In this document: positions 22,060 to 63,227 of the stretch, piece by piece | Layout of the letters: every line of letters starts with the position of its first letter | How positions within the stretch are numbered: the stretch's first letter is position 1 | Sequence record: MW394391.1 | Origin: Klebsiella phage vB_KpM_FBKp24 | DNA length: 64,000 nt | Direction: 5' to 3' (one strand) | The notes under the pieces: model-generated | What the model saw: the letters and a program-made list of their open reading frames with translations, nothing else | Databases searched by the model: none | What the model was told of the DNA's origin: nothing | Translations under genes and position numbers: made by a program

Positions 22060-23856
22060 TTAAGAAAGGTATGCGTAAATCTGGCGATTTTTAGCGTCTA
22101 TACCAGTAAGGTTGACAGTGATCGTGGTACCATCGGTGGAAATACCCACTGTGAAACTGACTCCCGTAGGTGTGCTACTACTATCACCCCAACGATTAGT
22201 AGGATAGGTTTTAAGATTGCCGAGATCGGTGATTAATGTCGGGTTAGTCGTCTCCCACCCCATGAGTAACGGGACTCTTAGGTATTCTAAGTTGCCAGCT
22301 GAGCCATCTCTTGATTCGATATTGAGATTGTAGACATTAGGAATTTGATATTTAGTTAATGCAGTCCGGGTGAATGAAAATGAGGCAGTGCCCCCGGCGT
22401 TTAATGTAATGTTTACGGGGCTACCGATAGAAACGCGACCATTCCTAATTTGAAATACGCCTACTGTACAAGCATTTGAGATACCGTGGTTGCCGAAATA
22501 CGTTTTACTAGCGGCAATAGCGGTTTCTTTAACAAAACCAAGATAACCGCCACTGAAATAAGAACCAGTAACAACAGTTACCATCGACGAACCATTTCCG
22601 GTCGTAATGATATCGTATTCCGGAGTTGCTGTCCCTGTGCCATCGTCATTCACCCCTCTTGTAGTTCTGATTCCGGTGAGTACCAAGACGGAGTCGTCAG
22701 ATTGGAGAATATTACATTGTTCGGTTGTCCCCGCCGTACCTTTACTACCATTACGCTGAATTGAGCAGGTAGAACAAGTGATTGAGGATCCCCCCATCAC
22801 CGCCAAACCTGCTTTTCCGTTCCTATCAATCAGCTCACCGGTGTATGTGTTACCTACCGACTGGTAAAGATAGATACCTTCTCCATCGTTCCACTCGATT
22901 CTCACACCCACAAACGCATTATTATTTGCGCCAGTCAGTAAAGAGATTGCCCGACCGGTATTGGCGTTAAAAGTTGTGTCCATTAATCTGGAGTCAATTA
23001 AATTGTTAGCGCCGAGATTACACCCGTGAATGTTACACCCTCTAGCGTACAAGGTACCTACGTAGTTAGATTTACCTAAGCCTATAGCCCAACGATAAAT
23101 ACCACAACGCTCAAATCGACAACCGTTAAGTTGACCGCTACCCTGCATCAAATTGACCGATTTATCTCTCCCGTCAAAATTGATACCGACGAAATTATGT
23201 CGCCCGGTGAAAGCGAATAAGTAACTCGCCCCCGCGCCCAGTCTTATAACTGTCCCGGTATTATCGAAACTACTGTTTGATGGTGTGGTATAGGGTCGAT
23301 AGCAACTCCCGTAAATACAGAACCCCATAGGTATGGTCACGGTACCTGCATGAACATAAACCCCGACTACCGGCGGATATACTAGATACTTTTCCCCGGC
23401 GTCAATTGCGGCTTTCAATGCATAATCAACGTTGACTTCTACACCAACAGTACTCTTAATGAGCAGTTGATCTTCTTTCGTCATATACGAAAGAATGTTA
23501 GAGGATAAAAGATCAGTGACCTTCGCATTCCCTATCTCACTTATTGAATCCATTTCCTCGTTTAAATCGCGGAGATTGAGGTACTTATTTAATGCATAGA
23601 CACCATTATCAGTTACCACTTGCAAAACGTTCTGCGATGACAGCGTCACTGTGGTTATGGTACCTGTTAAACCCCCAAGATCGAAGAACTGATTGCTTTC
23701 TTCATGAAATAGTACGCTTTCCGTACCTGATGGAATAACTGCACCAACTTCGGCTTTGATAATGTTACTTTCGTCGACCCCGTATAACTGAGCGTTTACT
23801 TGATTCTGTACCTTTAACCCTGTTGATCCGGAAGGTTGTACTAAACGATCTAACAT
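22060..23856 (-). CDS. tailspike/depolymerase-like protein C (598 aa; beta-helix; N-terminus QPSGSTG-type shared with F)
   Basis: repetitive G/N/T-rich beta-helix sequence (NxxGxxIxG repeats); N-terminus MLDRLVQPSGSTGLKVQNQ similar to F MQTNFIQPGGSTSVQSSG. Confidence 0.65.
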   Translation of the reverse strand: MLDRLVQPSGSTGLKVQNQVNAQLYGVDESNIIKAEVGAVIPSGTESVLFHEESNQFFDLGGLTGTITTVTLSSQNVLQVVTDNGVYALNKYLNLRDLNEEMDSISEIGNAKVTDLLSSNILSYMTKEDQLLIKSTVGVEVNVDYALKAAIDAGEKYLVYPPVVGVYVHAGTVTIPMGFCIYGSCYRPYTTPSNSSFDNTGTVIRLGAGASYLFAFTGRHNFVGINFDGRDKSVNLMQGSGQLNGCRFERCGIYRWAIGLGKSNYVGTLYARGCNIHGCNLGANNLIDSRLMDTTFNANTGRAISLLTGANNNAFVGVRIEWNDGEGIYLYQSVGNTYTGELIDRNGKAGLAVMGGSSITCSTCSIQRNGSKGTAGTTEQCNILQSDDSVLVLTGIRTTRGVNDDGTGTATPEYDIITTGNGSSMVTVVTGSYFSGGYLGFVKETAIAASKTYFGNHGISNACTVGVFQIRNGRVSIGSPVNITLNAGGTASFSFTRTALTKYQIPNVYNLNIESRDGSAGNLEYLRVPLLMGWETTNPTLITDLGNLKTYPTNRWGDSSSTPTGVSFTVGISTDGTTITVNLTGIDAKNRQIYAYLS

Positions 23857-23891: not shown

Positions 23892-23901
23892 TATTAAAAG
23901 T

Positions 23902-26692: not shown

Positions 26693-26709
26693 CGTCATAA
26701 AAACACAAG
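26693..26709 (-). promoter_or_regulatory. candidate late-type promoter motif (coding strand CTTGTGTTTTTATGACG)
   Basis: TTTTTATGAC element after terminator hairpin 26708-26731, ~45 nt upstream of ATG 26649. Confidence 0.35.
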
Positions 26710-26731
26710 AGCAGGGCCAATTGGCCCTGCT
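26708..26731 (-). terminator. terminator hairpin gagcagggcc-aatt-ggccctgctc
   Basis: 10-bp perfect stem. Confidence 0.55.
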
Positions 26732-26756
26732 CGTTATAGACAAATTATAAAACAAT

Positions 26757-26951
26757 TCAACTACCAGAATTGTCCTCGTTAGTCCTGTCTTCTAAAAGAA
26801 AAGAATCATCCAAACCCTTTTCTGATAGGAACCCAAGAGCAGCTTCTTGATAGTTTTCTACTTCTTCGAAGGAAACAATAGCCTCTCCTAGTTCAATCCT
26901 TGAAAGAAAATAGACGTTATCCCGAGCTGTATCTTTGTAAATATAAATCAT
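26757..26951 (-). CDS. small acidic protein (64 aa) translationally coupled to tailspike E (TGATG overlap); possible tail-fibre assembly factor
   Basis: ATG 26951 overlaps stop of E; ORF-track version 26757..26990 starts further upstream. Confidence 0.35.
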   Translation of the reverse strand: MIYIYKDTARDNVYFLSRIELGEAIVSFEEVENYQEAALGFLSEKGLDDSFLLEDRTNEDNSGS

Positions 26952-28960: not shown

Positions 28961-28977
28961 GAAGTCATAGAAAAATC
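28961..28977 (-). promoter_or_regulatory. candidate late-type promoter motif (coding strand GATTTTTCTATGACTTC)
   Basis: TTTTTCTATGAC ~25 nt upstream of ATG 28936, adjacent to hairpin. Confidence 0.35.
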
Positions 28978-29003
28978 GGAGGAGACACTTGGTCTCCTCC
29001 GAT
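28975..29003 (-). terminator. terminator hairpin atcggaggagac-loop-gtctcctccgat
   Basis: 12-bp perfect stem between tailspikes F and E. Confidence 0.55.
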
Positions 29004-29010
29004 TAATTTA

Positions 29011-31278
29011 CTACTCGTTAATAAACCAATGTACGGGGGCTTTAACGTAAATAGTTCCTACTAACCCAGTGAAGTTAATAGAAACTCCTATTTGATCCGA
29101 ATATGCAGCCTTTCTTACCGACATTGGGAATGCAATATACCCTACGTCAGTTAAACCGGTTAATGTTTTCTTCTTATTAAAGTGAGAATCTACCCCAACA
29201 GACGTACCTTGTGTGTTGGCTAACTGTGAACGAGTCTCTGTGATTGTGGCCACGCTACCAGAAACAGTACCTGTATAAGTTGGCGTATCGTAGTACTTAA
29301 TGTAGTTATACAAGTAAAGTCCTGATACGTAGTCACTCCCTAATCTTACCGAAATTGCGGAGGCAAAAAGAGGGTTAAAGTTGTTTGCTGAATCAAATCT
29401 TTTTAAGCATTCAAGAGTAATAACATTACTTGCTAGAGTAGAAGTGATTTTAATCGTTGCGAGCCCATCTTCATCCAGCGTAGCGAGTTTGGTAATGGTT
29501 ACACCGGTTCCAGTAAAACTAAACTTATGTTGAGTTCGACTATCGGTTTGGTTGTTGAAATCAGTATCTGTTGCCACTGTATCCCATTTCCAGCGCCACC
29601 CCATCAAAGATTGTTGATAATCACTCAAAACAGGAGTAGTGGCGCGAAGGGAACCGGATGGTGCTAATGTATTGTATCCGCCCTTAACAACGCAAACAAA
29701 CTGGTCCCCGGTATTATCTCCGTAACCAGCAACGGTTCCCTGGCCTGTGAGGGAGTAATAAGGAGCCCAATAGTAATCCGATAAAGACCATGCGCACTCA
29801 TTGAAGGTTACCCCGAGGTCTTTCGTTGGGCAGGAAATCATTTGGCGTGCGTGGTTCGCTCTAAAAGTGTCAGAGTAATAAGGAGAGGTGTACTGGTTAG
29901 GGTAGAGGTAGACGCCATTGAACATGAAAATGTTTCGAATGTTCCATGTGTTACCTGGATAGATCTGAGTGAGCTGAGGTTGATTTACCAACATATTACC
30001 AAAGCCTTCGATCCATCCTCTTTCCATCGTGACACGGGTATTAGAGGAATAAAGTGAGCATCTAAAAACATCCCCTGCCGTGTAGTCCAAACTCGTGTCA
30101 ATGATACTAACTATCGCGCCCTTATCAAACCAGAAATGAGCGGTATCGTTATTCCCAATAACCCCGTTAATGAATACTATCTTTTCACCGGAGTTAACAA
30201 TAGTTTGGTTAGTTTCGAACCACACCCCGATTTGGTTATTTGCAATATTGAAATCAGAAAAAGTATTGCAATAAAAGTTAATGTAGTTGATACGCAGACC
30301 GTACTTAAATCCTTCCACCCTGAAATTCTTGACATTAAGATCCCTGACAGACATCGGGAGCGTTCCATAGGTGGCAATTCTAATACCCGCGGCGTTACTT
30401 GTTGACTTTCCTGGGCCTAAAATAAAGAAAGACCCGCCATTAGCGTTAAAGAAATTCGACCCCTGAGTATCGACGAAATTACTATCCGGCATCTGGCCAG
30501 CTGCAACACCGGTGATACCTTCATTCGTGATAACGATCGCGTCATCATTTGTTAGAGAAGTGACTAAATAAATATTCCCATAAGAGACTAAAGAAAAGAA
30601 CGAGGGGATTTTAACTTGTTTCTCTAGCACGTATTTATCGGAAAACTGAGGAAAGAAAATCTGAGTGCTAACACCGAAAGTATTCTTGTTAGCGGAAATT
30701 TTGGCGGTAGTAAAATCAACAATTTTTTGGATTGCGGCTCCTGTACCCGTACCGTCGCTTTTCACTCCGGCCAAACGAATATCTACCCCTTTAGAGACAT
30801 CAACTTTCCAACGGGCACCTTTGGGAGTCACCATAATTGAGAAGTCATTATCAGCGGAAGCAACGTCGCTAGAATCATAATTGGCAATAATATTGATTAG
30901 CGGACCGCCTTGTACAGCACGCTCTAAAATAATTTTTTGCCCTGCGTACCACGGCTCAAATTTTCGCAGATCGGCGATAGTCGCGACAGATACTGTTGTC
31001 AGTGTAGATGGAAACGCCAGAACAGTAAAAGAACCTGCGTTCGTAGTTACCGTGGCTGTGGTTCCGGTAACAGAAACGCCACTCACAACTCCGGTGATAG
31101 CGGTAGTATTAAAAATCTCTTTTGATTCTGGAAGAATAGCAAAAGAGTAATTTGTCAGGTCGTTACCGACTTCCAGTGAACTGATAGACGTTTGCGGGAT
31201 GTTCAATAACTGAGAAAGAACCTCGCCGCTTGATTGTACGGATGTACTTCCACCCGGCTGAATAAAATTAGTTTGCAT
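29011..31278 (-). CDS. tailspike/depolymerase-like protein F (755 aa; no KISEL anchor; QPGGST N-terminus)
   Basis: start set to ATG 31278 (M6 of ORF-track translation; track start 31293 is TTG), AGGA RBS 7 nt upstream. Confidence 0.65.
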   Translation of the reverse strand: MQTNFIQPGGSTSVQSSGEVLSQLLNIPQTSISSLEVGNDLTNYSFAILPESKEIFNTTAITGVVSGVSVTGTTATVTTNAGSFTVLAFPSTLTTVSVATIADLRKFEPWYAGQKIILERAVQGGPLINIIANYDSSDVASADNDFSIMVTPKGARWKVDVSKGVDIRLAGVKSDGTGTGAAIQKIVDFTTAKISANKNTFGVSTQIFFPQFSDKYVLEKQVKIPSFFSLVSYGNIYLVTSLTNDDAIVITNEGITGVAAGQMPDSNFVDTQGSNFFNANGGSFFILGPGKSTSNAAGIRIATYGTLPMSVRDLNVKNFRVEGFKYGLRINYINFYCNTFSDFNIANNQIGVWFETNQTIVNSGEKIVFINGVIGNNDTAHFWFDKGAIVSIIDTSLDYTAGDVFRCSLYSSNTRVTMERGWIEGFGNMLVNQPQLTQIYPGNTWNIRNIFMFNGVYLYPNQYTSPYYSDTFRANHARQMISCPTKDLGVTFNECAWSLSDYYWAPYYSLTGQGTVAGYGDNTGDQFVCVVKGGYNTLAPSGSLRATTPVLSDYQQSLMGWRWKWDTVATDTDFNNQTDSRTQHKFSFTGTGVTITKLATLDEDGLATIKITSTLASNVITLECLKRFDSANNFNPLFASAISVRLGSDYVSGLYLYNYIKYYDTPTYTGTVSGSVATITETRSQLANTQGTSVGVDSHFNKKKTLTGLTDVGYIAFPMSVRKAAYSDQIGVSINFTGLVGTIYVKAPVHWFINE

Positions 31279-31303
31279 TTTAGGTCCTATCAAAACGTGA
31301 AAA

Positions 31304-31329
31304 GCGAAGGAGGAGAAACTCTCCTTCGC
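31304..31329 (-). terminator. terminator hairpin gcgaaggaggag-aaact-ctccttcgc
   Basis: 9-12 bp stem followed by T-rich sequence on minus strand. Confidence 0.5.
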
Positions 31330-31345
31330 TTATTTTCTTACATTA

Positions 31346-31639
31346 TCAGGATTGACCGTTAATACCAAAACTAGCAGATAGTTCTTTCTCTGCTTGTTCT
31401 AATATTTCTTCCCCTGATTGGCTTTCAGTAACGATTTTGAAAGTTACTGCCCCTTGAGAAAACCCTTCTATATCCACCGTAAAGAAAATCTCGGCGATAT
31501 CTCCTATATATTTTCCCCCGTAATTAATACTTGTAGCCGTATACGTGGCTTCTAGGGATTTTAAAGAAGGTGTAGATGAAGATCCAATTTCATCAATTTT
31601 CTCTTTCGTATAAAATTCTTTGACTACAGTAAAGCTCAT
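31346..31639 (-). CDS. hypothetical protein (97 aa) immediately downstream of tailspike G
   Basis: AAGAGGA RBS; possible fibre accessory protein. Confidence 0.45.
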   Translation of the reverse strand: MSFTVVKEFYTKEKIDEIGSSSTPSLKSLEATYTATSINYGGKYIGDIAEIFFTVDIEGFSQGAVTFKIVTESQSGEEILEQAEKELSASFGINGQS

Positions 31640-34340: not shown

Positions 34341-34358
34341 TAGTCATAGGAAAACAAA
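34341..34358 (-). promoter_or_regulatory. candidate late-type promoter motif (coding strand TTTGTTTTCCTATGACTA)
   Basis: follows hairpin 34359-34386; ~40 nt upstream of ATG 34302. Confidence 0.4.
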
Positions 34359-34386
34359 TAGAGAGGGGCCGAAAAGCCCCTCTCTA
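34359..34386 (-). terminator. terminator hairpin tagagaggggc-cgaaaa-gcccctctcta
   Basis: 11-bp stem, member of GAGAGGGG..CCCCTCTC family. Confidence 0.55.
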
Positions 34387-34469
34387 TGATTATTGTTACA
34401 CACGTTATCACAAAGTTGAATTGTAATCAAAGCTTACAATTACCACAAATGTTTTCGCTTCCCTGTAAA

Positions 34470-36698: not shown

Positions 36699-36728
36699 TT
36701 TTCCACCCTCAGGGTTAAAAGAAAGTTA

Positions 36729-36743
36729 ATCATACGAAACAAA
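36729..36743 (-). promoter_or_regulatory. candidate late-type promoter motif (coding strand TTTGTTTCGTATGAT)
   Basis: after hairpin 36746-36769, ~30 nt upstream of ATG 36698; near-identical to motifs at 39154 and 43832. Confidence 0.4.
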
Positions 36744-36745
36744 AC

Positions 36746-36769
36746 TGAGAGGGGCGTAAACCCCTCTCA
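36746..36769 (-). terminator. hairpin tgagagggg-cgtaaa-cccctctca in the divergent region
   Basis: 9-bp stem, same family. Confidence 0.45.
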
Positions 36770-36871
36770 ACGTATGTTTAATAATGTTTCACTTGCAATG
36801 ACAGAACAGCGGTTGATAAATCGTGGGAGTATAACCAATCTTAATCACGGTCACGATAGTCAATGCTATGA

Positions 36872-36886
36872 TACGATTGACTATTA
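36872..36886 (+). promoter_or_regulatory. candidate late-type promoter motif (GCTATGATACG) upstream of tailspike I
   Basis: TATGAT ~25 nt upstream of ATG 36908 in 210-nt divergent intergenic region. Confidence 0.25.
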
Positions 36887-36907
36887 GAGACAATATAAGG
36901 TAAAATT

Positions 36908-39121
36908 ATGGCCAGTGAGATCTATGTAAAGCTCAGTGAAATGGATCGCCCATCAAAACCGGTAAACGATTCCGATCTGGTTTTTATTGCACAAAATGAA
37001 TCAGGGGTTGTTGAGTCTAAAGCGGCGGCCATCTCTGATCTGCGCGCGCTTCTTAATTTTGAAAATGCTTACACTACCACCACACTAGGTTTAGCCGATA
37101 CTGAAGCTAACCAAATCTTCTACGTTTTTGTCGATGCAACAAAAACGACAGTAAAATCTTATATTAATCGTAACGGCATCGCGGAGGCTATCCTTAACGC
37201 GGACGGCACTTTAAAAATCAATTACACTCTCGTCGGAATCGACGCTATTCAGAAAGAAATTAATTCCGTTTATTCCACGGGTGGGTCCAATAGCGTCGGT
37301 CATGTAAGAACAGAGATTGAGTCAAATTCAGCTAGTGTGGCAAAAACGCTGAACGGGCTCCCGGTTAACATTTGGGAATTTTCTAATTTAGTGACTAAAA
37401 AAGACAACCCGAATGATCCCTCTACTTGGGACTGGTCGCCAGCTGTAAGCGCAGCTATTGATAAGTGTATTTATCAAAAGCAAATTAATATCTCCAACGC
37501 ACAAAGATATTGTTCAGGTTGGCTCTTCTTCCCACCGGGAAAATATAGATTAGACAGTAAAATTGTCAAAGATTTAAGTTCTATTACGTACGAGACAGGT
37601 AAACCCCGTTTTAGGATTATGGGCCAAGGGGCTTACATTTCTTCTAATGTTAATAAGGATTATTTGTTAACGTTTACTGGTGGTAGATTGGAAATGGACG
37701 GAATAACGTTCATTAAAGAACCGGGTATTTTTGCTTACTACATTAAACTCGGAAGTGAAGTGACTGCTAACTCAATGGCCGTTGGCGGGAGATTCTCTAA
37801 TCTTAACTTCATGTCGCCCACTAAAGCGATAACCTTCGGTCAGTGTTACGATGCAGTATTTGATTGCATCTACATGACTGGGTTTGTTGCAGTTGACGAT
37901 AGCGATACAAATAACCCTGCGACGGGGATTCATATCTTACCTCAAGCCACGGACAACTCCAACAACATCGTGTTCATCAGACCACACATTGAAACGTCGT
38001 ACACTAAAAACTACATAGCTATTAAAGTAGATCCAACTTCTACCTCCAGTACACACCACAACATTAAATTTGAAGGCGGTCATATTGAGACGCACTTCTA
38101 CGGAGCGAAGTGGTTTAGTTTAGGCGGCGGTACTCAGTTTAATTTCGACACTGTAGTTTTTACAGACAACGGGTCAGGTGGTACGGATACTGCGGGCACT
38201 TACGAATTAGGGTACATCAACCAAGGGATTGTTAAATTTACCGGTTGTACTTTCCAAACACTAAGAAAATCTAGTGTTGCGTATGACAGTTCGATTCACA
38301 CTTCAATGATAAGGTTCGGATCTAGCACTAACACTGGTCGAATTTTCGACAGTTGCTATTTCTCATCGGCATTTTCCGAAGTCTCTGGTAACGGCACGAT
38401 CGCTCCGATTTTTGATGTCAGTGCAAGTACCCAGGGTAAAAGAGCGTACCAACTTATTAACTGCGCAATTAATAATTTTACCAGAAGAATATCAAGTGGT
38501 TTAATTCTTAATGATCTTAAAGTTGCGACAAGGAAATATATTGTCGATGTTGATAGTGACAACAATAGCGCCCTATCTATTTACTACACTAACACCGATG
38601 GATCTTTCAATCCAACTACTCCGATCCTTTCGGTGGCGCAAGATGGAACAATAAGTGGCTACCTCATTAAAACTACGGCTTCAATTTCAAGCGGAAATAT
38701 TCTCCAAATTGGGAATAACAATACTACTGCTGGCGATCGAAGACTGGATTTCTACCCGTACGGCAACACTACTTTAGGAGGTAGAATTTTACTTGGTAAC
38801 ACCGGACCGATGACTTTTACTAGTTATTTATCCGGTATGAACTTTGTTGCTAACGGAGGCGCTAGTCAGTTTAATTTCATGGGGTCAGTAGTACCGAATA
38901 GCAACGCGAACTATGACTTTGGTTCCGCAGCGCTTTCGTGGAAGAACGCTTACTTTACCGGGACTATAACTGTCAACGGTAATCCCGTAGGAGTTAAAGT
39001 AGCGGTACCTTCCTCGGCTACTTCGGCGGGTAGCGTTGGTCAATGGGCGGCTGATACAAATTATCTTTACGTTTGCATCGCCACAAATACTTGGGTGCGG
39101 TCAGCATTGACTACCTGGTAA
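36908..39121 (+). CDS. tailspike protein I (737 aa) with anchor-type N-terminus
   Basis: ...AAISDLRALLNFENAYTTT...IFYVFVDATKTTVKSYINRNG matches anchor family; beta-helix repeats. Confidence 0.7.
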   Translation: MASEIYVKLSEMDRPSKPVNDSDLVFIAQNESGVVESKAAAISDLRALLNFENAYTTTTLGLADTEANQIFYVFVDATKTTVKSYINRNGIAEAILNADGTLKINYTLVGIDAIQKEINSVYSTGGSNSVGHVRTEIESNSASVAKTLNGLPVNIWEFSNLVTKKDNPNDPSTWDWSPAVSAAIDKCIYQKQINISNAQRYCSGWLFFPPGKYRLDSKIVKDLSSITYETGKPRFRIMGQGAYISSNVNKDYLLTFTGGRLEMDGITFIKEPGIFAYYIKLGSEVTANSMAVGGRFSNLNFMSPTKAITFGQCYDAVFDCIYMTGFVAVDDSDTNNPATGIHILPQATDNSNNIVFIRPHIETSYTKNYIAIKVDPTSTSSTHHNIKFEGGHIETHFYGAKWFSLGGGTQFNFDTVVFTDNGSGGTDTAGTYELGYINQGIVKFTGCTFQTLRKSSVAYDSSIHTSMIRFGSSTNTGRIFDSCYFSSAFSEVSGNGTIAPIFDVSASTQGKRAYQLINCAINNFTRRISSGLILNDLKVATRKYIVDVDSDNNSALSIYYTNTDGSFNPTTPILSVAQDGTISGYLIKTTASISSGNILQIGNNNTTAGDRRLDFYPYGNTTLGGRILLGNTGPMTFTSYLSGMNFVANGGASQFNFMGSVVPNSNANYDFGSAALSWKNAYFTGTITVNGNPVGVKVAVPSSATSAGSVGQWAADTNYLYVCIATNTWVRSALTTW

Positions 39122-39126
39122 CTCAT

Positions 39127-39153
39127 AGAGGAGGGCGAAATCGCCCTCCTCTA
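39127..39153 (+). terminator. terminator hairpin tagaggagggcg-aaat-cgccctcctcta + T run
   Basis: 12-bp stem followed by TATTTTGTTT. Confidence 0.6.
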
Positions 39154-39170
39154 TTTTGTTTCGTATGACC
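39154..39170 (+). promoter_or_regulatory. candidate late-type promoter motif TTTTGTTTCGTATGACC
   Basis: ~30 nt upstream of ATG 39199; identical core to 43832 (TTGTTTCGTATGACC). Confidence 0.4.
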
Positions 39171-39198
39171 ATTTTCAAATAATAACCGGAGCCAGATA

Positions 39199-41454
39199 AT
39201 GTCCGATATTTTTTCTCAAAAGATCTCTGAGTTACAGTCCAGTACAGGGCCGAGTGAAAACGCCTATTTCCCTCTTTCTGAAGCCAATAACGACTTCTCA
39301 GAGAAGGTGAGTATCACTACCTTAAGGGAAACTATTGGTTTTGAGAATGCTTTCCCTACCGTCGCTATTGCGTTACTGGCGACTAAAGAAAGCGACGTCT
39401 TCTTCGTTTATGAGGACGATAAAAAAGAAAACGTTTTGGGTTATGTCAATCAGGGTAACGGGAGTTATTCTGCCTTGATGACTGACAGTAACACTCAGCT
39501 GCGCTATGCTACAAGTAGCTTTGTTGTTAATAGTTTATTCTTTTTGCGGGGCGCGGAGAGTTTCGAAGAACTTAGAACAATTAAGCCATGGTACGAAGGA
39601 CAACGCATTAAACTTAAGAGTTACTACGTTAACGGTTTAACGGGTGGCGGTGAGTTTGTTGCGCGATTAACAGGCGGTGTAGATGACGGCGGTTTTATCG
39701 CGGCGGGAGAAGGGTATTATTGGGAACGTGCTGGCGATGAAATCTCACTTAACAATTACGGGGTCTATTATCAGGATATAAATGCAAACGGGAAAATTAA
39801 TTTCTCTAACGCCGTTCAATCTGCAATTAATAGGGCCAAAAATAAAAAGCTTCCGCTTATTACTAATTTCCCATCTGAAAACCATTACGTTAAAGGTGGG
39901 ATTTACCTCGAATCAGGTATTGATATTACAGGAATAAAATCGATCGAGGGGGCGTTACCCATTATCATCGATTCTTCCATTTTTACGGGTCTGAACGCTA
40001 TCGGTTACCCCGGTATAACATGGGTCCTGTTAAATATTAATGGCTCTTTAGGTACGGACGGTATGATATTCGGTACCAGTGTAGGTAATCAGACCCTTGA
40101 TACAATAGCGATAAGGGATCTTAATCCCAGATCAAAACCTTTAGGCGGGCAATTACACACTTTTTCTGGTACCACAATTAACGGTGCGCTTTGTGCTACC
40201 GGTTTTGATGGCCCTGGTGTTTATCTCTCAAACTGTTACGATTCTAATATTCAAGATATTCGGGCCATCGAATCAGGGAATATTTCTTGGTGGTCCATTT
40301 CGATAGATTCATATCCCAAAGACAGTACTTCTTCGCTGGACACCTCCAATCATTTAGTGATTGGGAGTATTGAACCTCACGATTGCCATGAACGAATTTT
40401 GAATGTCAACGCCTCCGCTTCCTCGGTCGACCATATACATGAAGAAGCGAGCTATGTAACGGACACAACTACTTGGGGTTCGGCTACGGTTTCTAGTAAC
40501 GGTTTTGGGTGGACGAACACGCTTCTGGCTGGTTGGTGTTCTCGCTTTGGTGTGGTAAGGGTTCTACCGAAGAGCACTAATACAGGAAAGCATGTAACGA
40601 CGGTAGTCTCAGATCAAATTTCTATCGATACTTTTCAGACAGAAGGGAACCTCGGCCTCCATTTCACTTATACAAACCCCGTGAAAGGTTCTTCGTACGG
40701 AACAATTGAAGTAGGTACCGATCTTTATATTACGACCAATGTTCCGGGTTCGATAGGTCATTGTTTAGTAAAAGGCGCTAATTCCGTCGTCACTCAGCTC
40801 AGTAAGAAACTTAATGTTAGATCAATGATGATCACGGGGTCTTCTTCATCACTTGTTGACTCTGGTGGCGTATACGGGAACTTAGAGGCTATTGTCGCAA
40901 CTATCGATAGCGGCGTAGTCAGTAAAGGTTCTATAACCACCTTAACGTCTACAGGAAGTACTTCCCTCTCTAACATCGGTATTGTTACTCTCACTTTAAA
41001 CGGGACACGGACAACGGTCAAAGATTGTTACATCAGTGGTGTTTCTAGTTTTTCTGGGGATGGAGTTGTATCAGGGACTACACTTGTTGGAGCAAGCAGT
41101 TTTTCTGGATCGTTTACTTGTTTCGGTATCAAAACAAACGCGAATTTATCTATCAGTAACACCTCTGCGCAGACATATAACTTCTCTTTACGTGATTCGT
41201 TTATTAATGGGCAACTTTCAATAACGAACTACGTTAAAGTGAACATCGACTTCGTCAGGGTCATTAATCTTTACATTTCCATTACTAGCGGATTCTTACT
41301 TCTTTCAAATATCCAAATGACCGGGTCATTAACGGGGAATGTAATAAGTTCAACCAACGTCCCGGCTTTGGGTTCTTCGACGACTGACCCTACTAATGGA
41401 AATAGTTACATTTTCCAATCTGGGGGTTGGAAAATGATAAATATAACTGCATAG
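39199..41454 (+). CDS. tailspike protein J (751 aa) with N-terminal anchor domain
   Basis: MSDIFSQKISELQSS...LRETIGFENAF; LRTIKPWYEGQRIKLKSYYVNGLTGGGEF beta-helix entry motif. Confidence 0.7.
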   Translation: MSDIFSQKISELQSSTGPSENAYFPLSEANNDFSEKVSITTLRETIGFENAFPTVAIALLATKESDVFFVYEDDKKENVLGYVNQGNGSYSALMTDSNTQLRYATSSFVVNSLFFLRGAESFEELRTIKPWYEGQRIKLKSYYVNGLTGGGEFVARLTGGVDDGGFIAAGEGYYWERAGDEISLNNYGVYYQDINANGKINFSNAVQSAINRAKNKKLPLITNFPSENHYVKGGIYLESGIDITGIKSIEGALPIIIDSSIFTGLNAIGYPGITWVLLNINGSLGTDGMIFGTSVGNQTLDTIAIRDLNPRSKPLGGQLHTFSGTTINGALCATGFDGPGVYLSNCYDSNIQDIRAIESGNISWWSISIDSYPKDSTSSLDTSNHLVIGSIEPHDCHERILNVNASASSVDHIHEEASYVTDTTTWGSATVSSNGFGWTNTLLAGWCSRFGVVRVLPKSTNTGKHVTTVVSDQISIDTFQTEGNLGLHFTYTNPVKGSSYGTIEVGTDLYITTNVPGSIGHCLVKGANSVVTQLSKKLNVRSMMITGSSSSLVDSGGVYGNLEAIVATIDSGVVSKGSITTLTSTGSTSLSNIGIVTLTLNGTRTTVKDCYISGVSSFSGDGVVSGTTLVGASSFSGSFTCFGIKTNANLSISNTSAQTYNFSLRDSFINGQLSITNYVKVNIDFVRVINLYISITSGFLLLSNIQMTGSLTGNVISSTNVPALGSSTTDPTNGNSYIFQSGGWKMINITA

Positions 41455-41460
41455 TTAAAA

Positions 41461-41490
41461 ACTCAGTCCTAAAAAGGACTGAGTTTTTTA
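41461..41490 (+). terminator. terminator hairpin actcagtcct-aaaa-aggactgagt + TTTTTT
   Basis: 10-bp stem + T6. Confidence 0.65.
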
Positions 41491-41497
41491 TATGACC
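41484..41497 (+). promoter_or_regulatory. candidate late-type promoter motif TTTTTTATATGACC
   Basis: ~22 nt upstream of ATG 41520. Confidence 0.35.
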
Positions 41498-41519
41498 ACC
41501 TCCATTCAGGATTAAAGAC

Positions 41520-43559: not shown

Positions 43560-43573
43560 GAAGGAACTCACTA

Positions 43574-43794
43574 TGTTTCAAGTAGGCGACACCGTTCGCA
43601 TCCTTTCTTGTCAAACTCGAGAAGACTTAGTCGGGAAAGAAACGACCATCAGTGCACTGGACGCTAAACTGGAAGATTTGGCTTGGGCAGATATCTACGG
43701 AATGGATCAATATATTTCGGTGGTCATCGATACCGATGCACGATTTATTGCGGCTCAACTGGAACTCGTAGCCAGTGACATTGAAGGCTCTTAA
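43574..43794 (+). CDS. small protein (74 aa) between tailspikes K and L
   Basis: AAGGA RBS before ATG 43574 (MFQVGDTVRIL...); ORF-track version starts at 43513. Confidence 0.45.
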
Positions 43795-43802
43795 GCTATA
43801 GG

Positions 43803-43830
43803 CAATGAGGGGACCTAGGTCCCCTCATTG
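43803..43830 (+). terminator. terminator hairpin caatgaggggacc-ta-ggtcccctcattg
   Basis: 13-bp perfect stem. Confidence 0.6.
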
Positions 43831-43831
43831 C

Positions 43832-43847
43832 CTTGTTTCGTATGACC
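43832..43847 (+). promoter_or_regulatory. candidate late-type promoter motif CTTGTTTCGTATGACC
   Basis: ~27 nt upstream of ATG 43874. Confidence 0.4.
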
Positions 43848-43873
43848 GGTTAGCTTTCTTCAGGAAAACAAAT

Positions 43874-51207: not shown

Positions 51208-51227
51208 AAGTGATATATATCTTAAAT
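51208..51227 (-). promoter_or_regulatory. candidate early-type promoter motif (coding strand ATTTAAGATATATATCACTT)
   Basis: fifth instance of TATATCAC motif, ~55 nt upstream of ATG 51155. Confidence 0.3.
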
Positions 51228-51958
51228 TAGTTTGAAACGGCTCCGAGACACTCAAAGAGATAACCCGACATGAATTCTGCCGATGACGGATTGGTGTATT
51301 GACCGCCGACATTATCCGAACGACGAATGGCAGAATAAATGTCAGCGAAGGCGGTAGCTTTTGCATCGTCAAATACGACCTTCAGAAGCCCTCTACGGGT
51401 CGCAGCATAAAAGTCAGCCGCTTCTACTGCCTCAGCGACAAAATCGCTGACAAAGCTTTCTTGGTCGTTATATTGGTCAACTACCAGCGGATGTGCATTT
51501 TTCAACAGGACGTAAAACTCCCTGCCGATGGAACTCATTATTTCCGTGCGCTGATCGACTTGAGTTTGAAATGACTTATACAGTTCGTTACTGTACGAGG
51601 TCACCCAGTTGGTACCGATCTGCCGAGCCTCTTCACGGAACTTGGTTTCTGGGCTGAGGTAATACCCGATCCCTTCGGTCAACGTCAAGTAGCTCAACGC
51701 ATTGGGTTGATTAAAGTCAACGTTCAAGTGAAGAACGTTACCTTCTACTCTATAAGTCTGAACGTCAGGGTCGCTGACAATCGAAATGTCTTCCAGTTGG
51801 TATTTCTCACTGATTGCGTGCATTGCATAAACAAACACTTGACCAGGAGTAAAAATCCCTTCGATCGTTTCTTTCACAGTTTGTGCTAATGCGATATTGA
51901 ATTGATTCGCATTTGAGTTAATGCCTTTCAGACCGTTTAACAGGCTGGATGCTTGCAT
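51227..51958 (-). CDS. hypothetical protein (243 aa)
   Basis: ORF track. Confidence 0.5.
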   Translation of the reverse strand: MQASSLLNGLKGINSNANQFNIALAQTVKETIEGIFTPGQVFVYAMHAISEKYQLEDISIVSDPDVQTYRVEGNVLHLNVDFNQPNALSYLTLTEGIGYYLSPETKFREEARQIGTNWVTSYSNELYKSFQTQVDQRTEIMSSIGREFYVLLKNAHPLVVDQYNDQESFVSDFVAEAVEAADFYAATRRGLLKVVFDDAKATAFADIYSAIRRSDNVGGQYTNPSSAEFMSGYLFECLGAVSN

Positions 51959-52052
51959 CGTGGTATTCCTCTGCGGGCGGAGTGAGTATCTTTACATATT
52001 AGAAAACGCACTGTAAAGTTTAAAAGATTACGTACTGCTAGTTATAGAGCAT

Positions 52053-52284: not shown

Positions 52285-52974
52285 TTAGACTGTGGGGTTA
52301 CTTTTGTTCGCTATCCACTGACTTGTAAGTGTTTTGAGTGCATTGCCGTTGTCGACATACGTACTCAAATTACTGTTGTCAGTGTATACTACATTACGGT
52401 CCTCGCTATTGGTAGTAGCGGAGACAATGACTAAATTTCCCTTGACCAATGGATTGGCCGTCAAAATAGTACGAAGCGTGTAACCCACGATTTCGATAAG
52501 ATCAGACAACTGCTTGTAACGGTACTGTCCATCATTGGTCGTGTCCTCTTCGTAATCTTTACGGAAGGATTCGAATAAATAGTAACCTACCCATAACGGT
52601 GCCACCGCATAGATACTCGGATTGAAAACGTTATCAATCCGTGGCAGGAGACTATACTGATACAGCGTCGTCACGCCATAACCCAGATTTGCCAGTGTGT
52701 TAAGAACATAGTTATCTGGGAGGGCGTTGATCTTGGCTTCAATACCCGAAGCGCTATTCGGGAGTGCAACCTTTAAATGCGCAATAAGTTTTGCACGAAT
52801 ATCGGTTTCACGTAAATTGATTGGCCAAGATAAAAGTGGGACCTGTTTAAACGGTTTGTTGACACCTGCGAAATCCCCAACGACAGGGGTGACTACCCAA
52901 GGCGTTAAAAGATTGACCGATTGGACAATCGCAGGTAAAGTACTGTCATCGTAAATTCCAACGGATGTCGGCAT
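52285..52974 (-). CDS. hypothetical (likely virion/tail) protein (229 aa)
   Basis: preceded by hairpin and TATG-containing late-type motif. Confidence 0.5.
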   Translation of the reverse strand: MPTSVGIYDDSTLPAIVQSVNLLTPWVVTPVVGDFAGVNKPFKQVPLLSWPINLRETDIRAKLIAHLKVALPNSASGIEAKINALPDNYVLNTLANLGYGVTTLYQYSLLPRIDNVFNPSIYAVAPLWVGYYLFESFRKDYEEDTTNDGQYRYKQLSDLIEIVGYTLRTILTANPLVKGNLVIVSATTNSEDRNVVYTDNSNLSTYVDNGNALKTLTSQWIANKSNPTV

Positions 52975-53043: not shown

Positions 53044-53050
53044 ATAAAAT

Positions 53051-53078: not shown

Positions 53079-53079
53079 A

Positions 53080-57100: not shown

Positions 57101-60100
57101 CTATTCGCTATCGTACGCTTTCAGCATTTCCTGCTGAATGTTTTCAATAAGAATGTTGCCCATCCCCAGAAGTAAAGCGGAGTTTACAATACGTGCGTTA
57201 ATTGCACGGTAGGAAAATTGTAAATCAATATCCCACGGTTGACCGCCTGGTAAGACTGGTGTTGTCGTCCGACAGATTCCTTTATAGACACCACTCACTA
57301 CGGACTTCTTCTGGTTACCAACAACTAACTTATCGCCATCGCCCATACCGCGCTGATGGGTAATGTAGATACGAATCGCCATCATATCAATCTCTAATGG
57401 CATCCCGTCAATACGGCTTGGGGTAAAGACCTGACCCGTTAAGGCGGTTTCGGTCCCCAATAACTTAGCATTCTTTGCCCGAATGCTGTCATACTTGTCA
57501 GCGATCTTACGCACCGAATCCGACATATCTTCTTTTTCACCGAAATAGAAGACCTCGATCTTTTCAACCTTACCAACGTGTTTTGCACGTGGTGCCGGGT
57601 TACCTAAACGTTTCAACGTTTCCATTGTCGATTCGTCAAAGTAGTCGAAGGTTGCGGAAACTTCGTCCTCTATAAAAGCCAGCGTGTCTTCATTATCGAC
57701 GTGCTGTCCTTCACTGACCAAGTTACGGATGGCCTGATTGAAGTTCACCATCAGCACACGAGTGTGCGTTACCAAGGTAGTCATCTTTTGCGATAAGCGT
57801 TCCGAAATCAAACTGGCATCTTCGAACGTGTTATTGTTCTCGACCAGCGCAATGTTCGTTGTTACGCCATTCTTAAAAGCGACCTGAGTAGGTTCACGCC
57901 AATCTCGCGCAAAGAATCCAGGGTGGTAAGCTACGACATGGTCTTTATCTACCTTTGCCCCAACCTCAAGATCGCATACAACTTCATGCGGCTCAGTGTG
58001 GCCGGTGACGATACCAAATTTACGCCCTAACTCAATCTGGTCTTCGCCAAGTTCAGGGTCGTCGTACTTGATCACAACATGCCCTTTGGTTTTTTCGGTG
58101 ATTGTCCCCGGACCTTTCGCCACAGAAGAGAAAAGGTCATCGGTACGCTGCGCCATCATTAACTCGTACCCTGTCCGGATATAACCCAAATCGTCTCCGA
58201 CGGAATAGCGTTTATGGCTGCTCTGTATACCGATAAAGTTTACGCGCTTAGGGTCGTCGTATGTTGAAAAAGGCGAGACCAGTGCACTTGTAGATAGTAC
58301 GTTACTGAACCCTTTCTCTTTGCTGAGATCAGTCTCAGTCCGTGCCGTCCCGCGCAGACTTGTCAGGTTAGGGTTAGCCGATAAGTAACAGTTAATCCCA
58401 ACGTCGCCGTTATCCACCGAGGATTCAGAACGTATTCCGATGTCACTAGGATGGAAGGCACGTGTACGACGAGTCATGGATCGTTTTCCGCGACCACCCG
58501 TACCAGAGTAAGTCAAGTTCTCTTTCTCTTTAAGGTTCTGTATCGGGTTGGAATCCTCTACCAAGGAAACAGAAGGGTCTTTCTGAATCGCTGAAAGGAT
58601 TTCAAACGGCGGGAAATCCAACTGCGCCCTTGAACTCAAATTACTCGAGCTTTGTCTTCTCACGGCCTCAGCGAACGTTCTGTAGACCGCACCCGCCATC
58701 CTTTCATAGCCTTTGAAGAGTGAGCCCTGTGAACTCAGGTCACTTGGGTATTCATCGGTTGCAAGATAGAAGGCGGCTTTTTTCAGTAGCGGAATAAACT
58801 CGGTCGGTTCATTCATCGCCTCCAGGTTTTCTTCAGCGATAGGGTCAATGAACAGCGCTTTCAGGTTACTGAACTCGTACAGATATCTTCCTGATAGCTG
58901 CATGTCAGACAGTAAAGCGTTATAGTTGTCTTGGTTGTCGAGTTCCGCGACCGAATAGTTTTTCAGTGCGTTTTTCCACAATTGGAGAGAGCTATAAATC
59001 AAAACATCCGGATGAGTAATACGAGGGATCCGCCAAATCTCATCGGCAAAAACGATTTCAAATGTATTTTGATCCGGTTGAACTCGAGCGCCCTTCGTTC
59101 TACGTTGGGGTTTAATCTCCATCTTATCAACGAACTGAGTGAAACCCTCAAGATACATTAAGACGATGGCCAACGGGAACTCTTGTCCTAATATTGAAAT
59201 TGTGACAAGTTCATTAGGGCGGTTTACAGGGTCTGCACCAAAGAGTTTTGAGATATGACCCAATCTCTCTGGACCGACCTGAAGATAACCCTCTCTGTCC
59301 ATGGTAACGGTAGACCTGCCTCGTTTACCTACCGGGATATTTCCTTGCCCATTCCAATCCGGAAAATTCTTCCCAATGTTCGGATAGTCAAAGAAAAAGT
59401 TCATTCCCGCTGCGTCAAACGAAATGACTTCCTTCGCTATTGCCGAATAGGTACGGGGAACGGGTTGTGAATCCGTGAATGAATTTCCGTAAACGATCTC
59501 GGCCATCAATGGTGGATTAGAAAGCGCCGCAACGTTCATAGCGTCTTTTAACCATTCACCGTAATCGTGGCGACGTTTATCGCTACGGTCTACGAAGAGC
59601 TTTCCGTAGTAAGTTGAGAGCGCGACTGTGGATGGAGAAATTTTGCGGATCGGTTTATCGAAACGCAGTTTACGCATAAAGTATTTGATACCGCCAACTT
59701 TATACTTACCATTTTTATCCACTACCGGAAGCTGGAAACGCACTGTCGAAGGTGCACCTTTTACCGGGGAGATCTTCACGGTGTAATCGTAAAGGTCATT
59801 CAGCGCATCGACCTGACGTTCGACTTTGAAGTCAGTGATGGCGTATCCGGCCTTCTGGAATCCGAGCACCAGATTGATCACATCTTTCTGCATGACTTCT
59901 TCGACATACTTTCGATCGTAATCGATCAACGTACTCTTGAGCATACTTTTATCTTTGACGTGAGCAATATCAACCACTTCTTTCGGTTTAAAGTCCCAGA
60001 CAATTTCCTTCGGAATTTGCCGATACTCATCTAACGATATTTCCTCGTTAAAAGGAGAAGGGATCGTCTTGTAACTTTCCGCCAATCTGAGATGGCGTTT

Positions 60101-61579
60101 ATATTCACCTTGGGTTATTAAGCCTTTGGAAAGAAGCGTCTCAGCCTGGATCCGTATCCCAGAAATTAGCGGGTCTTCTACCTTATCTTCCAGAGGTGGC
60201 TCTATAACCGTCTCAGCGTCAACGTCAGGGGCTGAAACTAAACGCAAGGCCCTAGGGGCTTCAGTTGTCTCGATCTCTTCTGTCAGACTTTTAAATGCGT
60301 CTACGATCTGAGTACGGATTCCTGGTTGCCCCGCGTTAATTTTATCCCGAATTTCTTTTACCGTAACGGTTTTCTTCGGAATACCAGTCGGTGTTTCGTC
60401 TTCCGCGACAACCGTCTCAATTACAACGTCGTCTTCAACCGTCTCGCTAACTTCCAGAATCTCGCTTTCACCCGTGTTCTCATCCGGGATGGTTTCTTCG
60501 ATTGTGGCCTGTTCCTGAACACCCGTCAGTAATTTCAACGCCGTGAGATGCTGGAGCATTAACCGAGAGACCTGGGCGTATGCATCACCCTTCGGGTTTT
60601 CGTTGGATTTTGTCCAACGACTTAGACGCCCGAGGTTAAGTACTGTAAATTTCCCCATCCGTAAAAAGACAAAGTTGATCTTGTCGTAGTGGTCAGAGGG
60701 AATAATATTTAACAGGGATTCTTCCCGCTTCTCGGAAAGCCATTGCCAAAGATCTTGAATGAAAAGTGAGTCGTCATTCTGGAAATAACCCAAACGAATA
60801 CGATTCATCTCTTCCAACGCTAACCCGGAATGCTCTATAAAGCTGGAGTCCGTTTCAAACCCTAACGCTGATTCGTCGAAAGATTCTCTCGCTACATCAC
60901 CTGGGAACTCGGATGAAATCCCTGGGAAATGCAGATCGAAAACGTCGCTGTATGTTTGTACCAGTGATTTATTACGGTGTTGATTCTGATACGCGTTTAA
61001 CAGCGGTACCCCGCCATCTTCTACGGAGATATTCAGCTGCATCTTAGTAGGCATCTCATCAGGCACATTGACGAGAATGAATTGATGGCGGTCAGAATGT
61101 TCTGCGTAGTATTTCGCCTGAGTATAAAGCGTAGAGAGCAAATTCTGGAAACGCCAGAATCTCGCCATCGGCAACGGAAGATAACGCCATTGCATCGGGA
61201 TCAACGAGTAGTTTGCAAGGATCGCAGTATTCCTGTCATCCAGAGCGCGATTGATATCAGTTACTCGACGAAAACCACGGCGCTTTTGTATCCAAGTCCG
61301 TTTAAGGTTGGAAACATTAAACGCACCTTTACGGCGAGGGGAACCAATAAAGCTGGTCATCTCCGTAATGTTGTCCGCATAAGGGCGGGTACGTTCCCGT
61401 TGGAACGCGAAGAATGTTTCATCTGGACCGAGGTCAATCGCGTTAGTCGGGAGGTAATGAAGAATACTATTTTTTGGTAACGCGAAGTTTTCAATGTTAA
61501 AAGCACGGGGGTTCGATAATGTCGTACGATTACGAATTCCGTACGACATGTAAAATTGTTGGTACTGAATGTTGCTCAT
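57101..61579 (-). CDS. multisubunit RNA polymerase beta-like subunit (1492 aa)
   Basis: [23 protein letters not shown] vs bacterial beta [37 protein letters not shown] vs [29 protein letters not shown] vs [37 protein letters not shown] vs [26 protein letters not shown]; protein ends ~40 aa after this motif. Confidence 0.8.
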   Translation of the reverse strand: [1492 protein letters not shown]

Positions 61580-61595: not shown

Positions 61596-63227
61596 TTATG
61601 CGTCGCCAGTGATATTACGTAAAACTAACTGTACGTTGTCAACGTCAGCGCTCTTAGAGAGTGTGCCACGTGAAGATAGATACCACTCTTTGCGACTCTT
61701 TAATCTATTAAATTCCGCCAGGGAATCAGAAGCGTAAATGGCTGTGAAGGTACAACGGTCACCGTCGAAGTCGGCCCCTAAGGGATTGAGGTAACTCACT
61801 CCTATCCCCATCGAGTTAACGTATTCTACTGACTTAGTTTGGTCAGGGAATTCAAAGCAAATATAGTCTTCGCCCAATCTTCGCCAGTCGTGACCAAGTT
61901 CAGGTTTCACGCTAGAAACAATGGTCGGTTTACAGTAAATATTTGCTATGAAGGTTGAACCTTGCCCTGTGACAGGGTAACGAGTTACAACACCCGCCAG
62001 TTTTCCCCATTCCCGATATCCCGATAAGTAATAAAGGGAGGTCATGTTGATAGGGCTCACGAATCGCTTATCGAAACCCGCCGGGAGTTCATTAATGTCG
62101 GAGAAGAATCGGAAACCTTCCTCGCCCCAATAAAGAAGACCGAGATAAAAGCCATCTACCATGATCGGCTTACTGCGGAACGCAGGGGTTTTGTACCGGG
62201 TTATTTGTGCGTCAAGACCGTCACGGGTCGTCCAGCGTTCAATCGCCTCCGGTGAGGGTTGAACATATTCTGCTCGCAGCGTTTTTGGGTTAGTCAGTCG
62301 GATTTCATCTTCGCTATTACCAGAGAAGACTTCACCTAACCAGCCCGACCGTAAGAAGTAACGTGTTTTCGGCAACACCGCTTTGATCGTCTGGTAAAGA
62401 CCTAACTGAACATGGTTGACCCCAGGCGTATTCGTTTCACCGATTCGACCCCCGGTAATTTTCATCGGTGAAATGACGTTCGCCGTACCGTTGAGTATTT
62501 TACGAGAAGCCCATTTGGCTGCAGCGAAACCCTTTTTACCTTTAATCATGTTAAAGATACTTTCAAAGATTTCGTTGAACTGACGCTGGAGCTGTAAACG
62601 ACTGTTGTTGATTACGGGGTCTTCGGAAGGTTCTCTTCCCGTGTCAAGACTACTTGAAATAGAAATGATTGAGCGATAATATTTATTAATTTCATCTTCA
62701 CTGGTTCTACCGGTGGGCTCAACCATTAAATCCCGTAGCCCGGCTGGCATGACAAGTACTTTATCGACGAGGGCGTTTTCTTTGTTTTTGTTAATCAGTT
62801 TAACTCGGAGATTACGAATTTCCGAATCCCCTTCCTCGATCTTCAGTTCAGGGAAGTGACGAACAAAGAAAGCGAAACCCGTATCGCCCTCCATTTCGTT
62901 GCTGGGTTCGAAATCAAAGGTTTCTGTGTTAAAGACCGCGTAACGTCTACCCTCTAAAATATCCAGGTATAAGCGTTTTAAAGAACCTAGGCGCTTATAA
63001 ATGAGGGGGTGGAAAATTCGCGTGTTAAGATTAATGTAACTGAATCGACCGTCTCGTTCGGGAGAACCGAGGGGACCAAAAGTTTCAATAGAAAATAACC
63101 CATCCTTATGGAAGTTCCGCGTGCCCGTTTCAAATATTTCTGTTGTAACAGTCGGGCGCATACTCCGAATCAATTGCGGGGTTAGTTCCATGAGGAAGAT
63201 ATTGAAAGGAATATCATTGGTACGCAT
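61596..63227 (-). CDS. multisubunit RNA polymerase beta-prime N-terminal-like subunit (543 aa) with catalytic DFDGD motif
   Basis: VVTRYPVTGQGSTFIANIY...YLNPLGADFDGDRCTF vs bacterial LLNRAPTLHRLGIQAF...YNADFDGDQMAVH; AGGAG RBS; 16-nt gap to beta-like gene. Confidence 0.8.
   Translation of the reverse strand: MRTNDIPFNIFLMELTPQLIRSMRPTVTTEIFETGTRNFHKDGLFSIETFGPLGSPERDGRFSYINLNTRIFHPLIYKRLGSLKRLYLDILEGRRYAVFNTETFDFEPSNEMEGDTGFAFFVRHFPELKIEEGDSEIRNLRVKLINKNKENALVDKVLVMPAGLRDLMVEPTGRTSEDEINKYYRSIISISSSLDTGREPSEDPVINNSRLQLQRQFNEIFESIFNMIKGKKGFAAAKWASRKILNGTANVISPMKITGGRIGETNTPGVNHVQLGLYQTIKAVLPKTRYFLRSGWLGEVFSGNSEDEIRLTNPKTLRAEYVQPSPEAIERWTTRDGLDAQITRYKTPAFRSKPIMVDGFYLGLLYWGEEGFRFFSDINELPAGFDKRFVSPINMTSLYYLSGYREWGKLAGVVTRYPVTGQGSTFIANIYCKPTIVSSVKPELGHDWRRLGEDYICFEFPDQTKSVEYVNSMGIGVSYLNPLGADFDGDRCTFTAIYASDSLAEFNRLKSRKEWYLSSRGTLSKSADVDNVQLVLRNITGDA

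Follow-up and report, generated by a model that had tools for sequence, protein, structure and literature searches.

Transcription from the late promoters of phage phiKZ starts at the G of their consensus, TATG, which is the only conserved element; in vitro, none of its four bases can be dispensed with (PMC4666361, PMC7598289). No conservation was found downstream of TATG (PMC4666361), and Yakunina et al. reported that a downstream determinant, not found in the sequence, is essential for the phiKZ promoter P119L, which reads tattgcTATGtagac and lies 50 nt before its ATG. According to a review, bioinformatics fails to predict the late promoters of such phages (PMC7598289). The intrinsic terminators of phiKZ and 201phi2-1 consist of a CCYCCCC...GGGRRGG hairpin followed by YTTATKYYGT (PMC10914365). 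The late promoters of the AR9 non-virion RNA polymerase (nvRNAP) have UUGU on the template strand, at -11 to -8, and AU/C where transcription starts. For Centimanus or Siatvirus-type phages, we found no promoter study in the literature.

The window analysed here is a stretch of 64,000 nucleotides from Klebsiella phage vB_KpM_FBKp24 (MW394391.1), a nucleus-forming Klebsiella jumbo phage of ∼300 kb. Its backbone is 98% identical to that of Klebsiella phage vB_KpM_Centimanus (299.7 kb; here Centimanus), the nearest relative, and ∼77% identical to Siatvirus KpLz-2_45 and its relatives, and its tailspike set is mostly unlike that of Centimanus. Across the tailspike cluster (16276-47541) the two phages share fragments only, with a coverage of 4% at 36000-44000. 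Their J-type genes, unequal in length, have an identical promoter, leader and N-terminus, and the stretch from promoter to N-terminus is nearly identical in LPKP23. The pattern of the spikes in the two phages fits an exchange of receptor-binding modules downstream of an N-terminal anchor.

An earlier note on this DNA had proposed that a recurrent element upstream of the tailspike genes contains the TATG core of a phiKZ-type late promoter. Polymerase homologues, strand bias, virion-gene targets and a TATG that stays fixed while its flanks diverge all support this proposal, and from the sequences we think it probable that TATGA(C/T/A) is the core of a phiKZ-type nvRNAP late promoter.

Sites upstream of the tailspike genes

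All upstream regions of the tailspike cluster were extracted. The sites are listed below together with two from outside the cluster; where two intervals are given, the hairpin comes first and the hexamer second.

39125-39163, plus strand: predicted terminator of tailspike I, a 13-bp GC-rich hairpin (39125-39154) and a T-rich tail, TTTGTTTCG (39155-39163)
39164-39169, plus strand: TATGAC before tailspike J; predicted start G 39167, leader of 32 nt up to the ATG at 39199
41457-41488 and 41491-41496, plus strand: hairpin (-19.4 kcal/mol) and TATGAC before K; predicted start G 41494, leader of 26 nt
43800-43833 and 43841-43846, plus strand: hairpin (-30.3 kcal/mol), tail TGTTTCG and TATGAC before L; predicted start G 43844, leader of 30 nt
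36744-36771 and 36729-36734, minus strand: hairpin, tail AGTTTTGTTTCG and TATGAT before H; predicted start G 36731, leader of 33 nt
36867-36872, plus strand: TATGAT before I, no adjacent hairpin; predicted start G 36870, leader of 38 nt
34358-34387 and 34343-34348, minus strand: hairpin, tail TTGTTTTCC and TATGAC before G; predicted start G 34345, leader of 43 nt
28974-29004 and 28964-28969, minus strand: hairpin, tail TTTC and TATGAC before E; predicted start G 28966, leader of 30 nt
26709-26732 and 26694-26699, minus strand: hairpin, tail TTGTGTTTT and TATGAC before D; predicted start G 26696, leader of 47 nt
20440-20445, minus strand: TATGAA before B, a weaker candidate ∼50 nt from a hairpin; predicted start G 20442, leader of 42 nt
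53048-53081 and 53028-53033, minus strand: hairpin and TATGTA before gene 52285..52974; predicted start G 53030, leader of 56 nt
51993-51998, minus strand: TATGTA before gene 51227..51958, an additional candidate; predicted start G 51995, leader of 37 nt

The TATG core is carried by 11 of 11 window sites, and the predicted leaders, from the G of TATG to the start codon, measure 26-56 nt. Before tailspike J, a protein of 751 aa, 29 bases separate TATGAC from the ATG. The hairpin at this site reads ATAGAGGAGGGC-GAAA-GCCCTCCTCTAT (-25.7 kcal/mol, z -6.5); its last three stem bases together with the tail read TATTTTGT, and the tail resembles the YTTATKYYGT of phiKZ (PMC10914365). On folding, the 8 hairpins gave -19 to -30 kcal/mol with z-scores of -5.4 to -8.5, and the hexamer begins 2-14 nt past the hairpin (D, E, G, H, J, K, L and gene 52285..52974).

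Copies of the motif directly after a hairpin had been described before B, D, E and G to L. The description holds for D, E, G, H, J, K and L, where the distance is 2-12 nt, but B and I deviate. Site B lies ∼50 nt from its hairpin and has little else in common with the consensus; its LPKP23 and MJ359 orthologues have TATGAC at this position. For I, which has no adjacent hairpin, the stretch originally assigned (36872-36886, TACGATTGACTATTA) is not the motif and adjoins the 3' side of TATGAT 36867-36872. Orthologues of I in KpLz-2_45, LPKP23 (TATGTA) and MJ359 (TATGAT) keep TATG at the same distance. The relative of the motif reported before 52285..52974 was confirmed as TATGTA on the minus strand, 14 nt past the hairpin and 56 nt ahead of the ATG. 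KpLz-2_45 (TATGAT) and Centimanus (TATGTA) also have TATG here, with different flanks. The additional candidate before 51227..51958 is conserved as ctacTATGtaaa in KpLz-2_45, again with diverged flanks. Upstream of the same gene, TATGCT at 52050-52053 (minus strand) abuts a hairpin without a T-tail (gagagaggggttttacccctctctcTATGct) and is also kept in KpLz-2_45; this TATG may be a terminator tail or else a second promoter. Thus, two sites before 51227..51958 and one before 52285..52974 are kept in relatives.

Two gene starts are corrected by these assignments. For G, the ORF finder chose an ATG (34347) that is part of TATGAC, but the gene really begins 45 nt further on, at 34302, as had been suggested; the upstream ATG is out of frame in KpLz-2_45. 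The start of L had also been mis-called, the real one being 43874 and not 43805.

Terminator tail and TATG core

The 15-16-mer that the earlier note treated as one motif is real but comprises two elements. T-rich DNA resembling TTTTGTTTCG forms the tail that follows the upstream terminator hairpin, and TATGA(C/T/A), most often TATGAC, is a separate conserved core. T-rich TTTTGTTTCG tails follow hairpins without TATGAC at Centimanus positions 170023 (ttttgtttcgaatt) and 247614 (tttttgtttcgatt), and many terminators in the window outside the spike cluster lack TATG. Since such tails are present without TATGAC, the TTTGTTTCG half of the original consensus is terminator tail and not promoter. Hairpin tails in the window read TATTTTGT, TTTGTTTT or TTGTGTTTT, and the 8 hairpins with T-rich tails agree with phiKZ-type intrinsic terminators, as which we predict them to act. 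The preference for T at -7 and -6, seen in 19 of 25 sites, is mostly owed to these tails. Among the 11 window sites, pairwise identity is at background in the hairpin zone (0.28 from -40 to -14) and in the leader (0.29), and the 0.41 of the T-rich tract from -13 to -4 is explained by the terminator tails; no further conserved upstream promoter element was found among them.

We also asked whether the hairpin is an indispensable component of the promoter and decided against this, because the head and sheath sites described below have no hairpin and neither does the H-type site of MJ359. The latter gene keeps the tail and TATGAG (cttttgtttcgTATGAG), and TATGAG is also the form in the H orthologues. 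In the window, hairpin 36744-36771 separates H and I, two divergent genes that need no terminator between them. CGTATG occurs on both strands around this hairpin (TATGAT toward H, TATGTT toward I), making 36729-36776 an extended palindrome.

In the arrangement that we propose, each unit would run in the order hairpin, T-tail, TATGAC, leader and gene, with the T-rich stretch ahead of TATGAC belonging, as its tail, to the intrinsic terminator of the preceding gene; most of the spike genes would therefore be separate units. Terminator and promoter would touch because the intergenic spacers are only 65-107 nt. The nvRNAP would start transcription at the G of TATG, giving leaders of 26-56 nt that include a ribosome-binding site, and the homologue of its gp123 subunit would bind TATG on the non-template strand, as in phiKZ. 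Judging by gene function, expression from these sites would be late. A weaker suggestion is that the terminator T-tail, being easy to melt, also serves as the upstream half of the transcription bubble, so that each receptor-binding gene would carry a fused, portable insulator cassette.

The closeness of the two elements could also mean that TATG(AC) is itself the downstream tail of a phiKZ-type terminator, acting in termination or 3'-end formation and not in initiation. The conserved hairpin of phiKZ terminators is indeed followed by YTTATKYYGT (PMC10914365). Convergent gene ends have no need of a promoter, yet in Centimanus TATG lies 0-4 nt past the hairpin there in 9 of 50 cases against ∼3 expected, and this excess, together with the TTAT(G/T) in the phiKZ tail, means that some hairpin-abutting TATGs may be terminator tail. 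These convergent-end TATGs could also be antisense promoters. TATGAC at Centimanus 109141 likewise follows a hairpin and has no downstream gene in that direction. The distribution of TATGAC is nonetheless the opposite of that of TATG, the hexamer being found ≤18 nt past a hairpin at ∼10 of 71 tandem junctions but at 1 of 50 convergent ones in Centimanus. Within the spike cluster a complete T-tail already stands between hairpin and TATGAC, many terminators have no TATG, MJ359 retains the tail and TATGAG after loss of the hairpin, and conserved TATGAC precedes the major head, tail sheath, PhuZ and other genes without a hairpin nearby. A role in termination is therefore improbable in our view, and we continue to treat TATG as a promoter core. 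Examples of bidirectional hairpins followed by TATG at convergent ends in Centimanus are 41036-41069, 103653-103682, 204775-204807 and 109141-109182.

Spikes C (22060..23856) and F (29011..31278) have no TATG, either here or in four relatives, and are probably co-transcribed with the upstream spike, the hairpin having some other role. Hairpins precede both genes (23857-23901 and 31279-31345); those of the relatives run directly into the ribosome-binding site without a T-tail, and the F hairpin of the window is followed by CTTTTCACGTTTTGA. Spikes A and M begin 11-15 nt after the preceding gene and for this reason are probably co-transcribed with it, in the case of A with B. Small ORFs of 64-97 aa (26757..26951, 31346..31639 and 43573..43794) lie directly after tailspikes E, G and K, before the terminator; their counterparts are annotated in KpLz-2_45, LPKP23 and MJ359, and they may encode spike-associated accessory or assembly proteins.

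The C and F hairpins, without a T-tail inside probable polycistronic units, lend some credit to the idea that the motif acts as RNA, either as a site of processing, such as RNase E-type cleavage behind the hairpin, or as a 5'-UTR element in read-through transcripts. The motif would be well placed for this, being single-stranded, AU-rich and located between a stable hairpin and the ribosome-binding site. Such a role would leave unexplained both the exact invariance of TATG and its match to the experimental start motif of phiKZ. Moreover, the divergent regions before H, I and the tail sheath gene contain sites with no co-oriented gene upstream, and an Rfam search of the window matched no family. 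We regard an RNA function as decidedly improbable and retain the promoter reading.

Enrichment, orientation and conservation

With up to 3 mismatches (≤3), the full 15-mer gave 6 matches in the window against 3.2 expected and is not enriched, which is why we replaced the long consensus with the 6-nt core plus its context. Nor is the bare hexamer TATGAC in excess over the window as a whole, with 23 copies on the two strands together. Its density is, however, ∼5-fold higher in intergenic than in coding DNA, and the gene-oriented upstream regions contain 5 copies against 0.8 expected, with 0 in antisense. For TATGA[CT] preceded by a T-rich tract, we counted 7 copies in the 3.4 kb of intergenic DNA compared with a single one in the 60.5 kb of coding DNA, far from the equal frequency in coding sequence that would speak against a promoter.

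We then turned to the whole Centimanus genome, called its genes, took 228 upstream regions in gene orientation and ordered every 6-mer in them by comparison with an order-2 Markov expectation. This composition-corrected, orientation-aware test replaced a raw intergenic-versus-coding ranking that was dominated by A/T runs, terminator stems and Shine-Dalgarno words. The top 6-mer is TATGAC: 19 of the regions contain it, with 20 copies in all where 5.0 were expected (z 6.7; 6.7-7.2 by simulation). It is the only strongly enriched TATGNN, the next being TATGTA (z 2.4). Of the 22 intergenic copies, 20 point toward the downstream gene, and at 13 of 20 sites the predicted leader is 21-50 nt long. The targets include the major head, tail sheath (two copies), internal head, virion structural, tail protein, tail fibre and tailspike genes. 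By a count from the annotation, virion genes make up ∼9 of the 19 targets compared with roughly 8-10% of all annotated genes; one TATGAC precedes a non-virion gene, PhuZ.

The hexamers TATGAC and TATGAT agree with TATAAT in 4-5 of 6 positions, so the -10 element of a host sigma-70 promoter has to be weighed. Sigma-70-like sites were no more frequent than chance predicts (32 where 33.5 were expected, and 33 where 34.8 were), TATGAC does not end in the critical T, and a -35 element would have to lie inside the variable hairpins. Infection by phiKZ withstands rifampicin, an inhibitor of host RNAP (PMC4666361), and phiKZ genes are transcribed by two phage polymerases without the host RNAP (PMC10612078); related phages shield their DNA in a pseudo-nucleus (PMC7598289). 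A sigma-70 promoter is thus scarcely credible here, and the phage promoter remains our reading.

In Serratia phage 2050HW (150 of 276 kb) the signal is weak (TATGAC z 2.1, TATGTA z 2.5), which indicates that the strong TATGAC bias is lineage-specific and not general to enterobacterial chimalliviruses. It is conceivable, if rather doubtful, that the late consensus of Klebsiella chimalliviruses is the full six bases TATGAC, with A+2 and C+3 being the visible form of the downstream determinant of P119L. In that case, these phages would lend themselves to studying how nvRNAP gains its specificity from a motif of four bases.

A second upstream motif, CTATATCAC or ATATATCAC, occurs at 2388-2396, 13765-13773, 22032-22040 and 51210-51218, all on the minus strand and co-oriented with the downstream genes, and is conserved in KpLz-2_45. 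TATCAC, TATATC and TCACTC are among the top 6-mers in the Centimanus upstream regions (20 against 5.3 expected). The motif resembles the AT-rich promoters that form the early (virion RNAP) class in phiKZ-like phages, and it probably corresponds to the first motif class of the earlier note.

Conservation separates the core from its surroundings. Upstream of the major head gene, Centimanus keeps two tandem TATGs ∼30 nt apart, which are also present in a KpYy-type phage (91% protein identity), an uncultured contig (73%) and Serratia phage 2050HW (68%); one of them is kept in a 47% relative. The DNA between and around these TATGs has diverged, and +2/+3 vary among AC, AA, TA, TG and CA. TATGACG upstream of the tail sheath gene is kept down to 45% protein identity. 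Scans of viral contigs with single proteins covered only 3-4 loci each. The D-, E-, G-, H-, I-, J-, K- and L-type spikes of KpLz-2_45, LPKP23 and MJ359 have TATG at the same distance; the G and E sites are conserved in these three relatives, the D site in Centimanus as well, and the L orthologue of KpLz-2_45 retains cttgtttcgTATGAC. At orthologous sites TATG is invariant, while -4, +2 and +3 change (AC, AA, AG, AT, TA, TG, CA); the four core bases appear to be required and their neighbours tolerated.

Tailspikes D and G to L have a common N-terminal domain and are paralogous, so the window sites are not fully independent. The motif could then be functionless, copied with the N-terminal anchor domain during duplication or recombination of the spikes and persisting by linkage, as the shared domain of D, G, H, I, J, K and L and the near-invariant stretch from promoter to N-terminus of J in Centimanus and LPKP23 might suggest. 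Against this, the paralogues resemble one another no more than background in leader and hairpin (identity 0.28-0.29) although TATG is fixed, E and B carry the motif despite unrelated N-termini, and the motif is found genome-wide before unrelated virion genes and is conserved over large evolutionary distances. We consider a functionless copy very improbable indeed, and a functional late promoter remains our preferred reading of the sites.

Polymerase repertoire and comparison with known systems

The annotation of Centimanus includes the nuclear shell protein (chimallin) and the PhuZ tubulin, and the window itself carries two large virion-RNAP beta-type genes (57101..61579 and 61596..63227). By comparison with solved structures and with phiKZ itself, we found Centimanus homologues for 5 of 5 phiKZ nvRNAP subunits:

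gp55 homologue: 3e-47
gp74 homologue: 9e-68
gp71-73 homologue: 3e-81
gp68 homologue: 5e-31
gp123 homologue: 5e-68, 27-28% identity, beside the major head gene

The gp123 homologue was located through synteny with phiKZ, its position relative to the helicase and major head genes being the same in both phages. For CENTIMANUS_00088 and CENTIMANUS_00144, no relative of a solved structure was found. Since the nvRNAP genes lie outside the window, the nvRNAP of the window phage is deduced from the 98%-identical Centimanus.

In phiKZ, TATG is held by 14 named side chains of gp123 (PMC12809450). Six of the 14 are identical in the Centimanus homologue (S144, F151, K158, H331, S334 and Q466), 3 are changed conservatively (H185Y, N186Q and Y406W) and 5 differ, in an alignment at 27% identity. 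The pocket is compatible with the same recognition of TATG. As the sites match those of phiKZ in core, geometry, gene class and polymerase repertoire, we propose that they are nvRNAP late promoters.

The proposed promoter is thus of the known phiKZ type, in a phage group lacking an earlier description, and the modest difference is the preference for A+2 and C+3. A phiKZ-type late promoter is to be expected in such a phage, though it is unusually easy to see here. This statistical visibility, which is at odds with the published view that such promoters escape bioinformatics, offers a usable map of transcription units for therapeutic Klebsiella jumbo phages. The map implies that nearly every capsule-specific tailspike would be independently terminated and promoted, which matters for the engineering and swapping of depolymerases. 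The preference for A+2 and C+3 gives a handle on what, beyond TATG, specifies nvRNAP promoters.

The AR9 polymerase belongs to the same jumbo-phage family of non-virion RNAPs, and its promoters are also short. AR9 recognition differs, however, in being uracil-dependent and in reading the template strand via a sigma-like subunit, and no AACA-N6-TA pattern accompanies the sites described here.

The predicted terminators share with those of phiKZ and 201phi2-1 their GC-rich stems of the GAGGGG/CCCCTC type, 10-15 bp long, and TATTTTGT or TTTGTTT tails, but the tail is longer here, often ending in ...TTTCG right before TATGAC.

With the late promoters of phiKZ, the sites share a four-base core, the lack of any conserved upstream element of the -10/-35 type and a position before virion genes, at 26-56 nt from the start codon compared with 50 nt for P119L. 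The type of polymerase is probably shared too, as Centimanus has homologues of the five subunits; in its TATG pocket, about two-thirds of the residues are unchanged or changed conservatively. The differences are that most sites here abut a terminator, that the start G is predicted and that the preferred form extends to +2A and +3C, making it visible by statistics alone.
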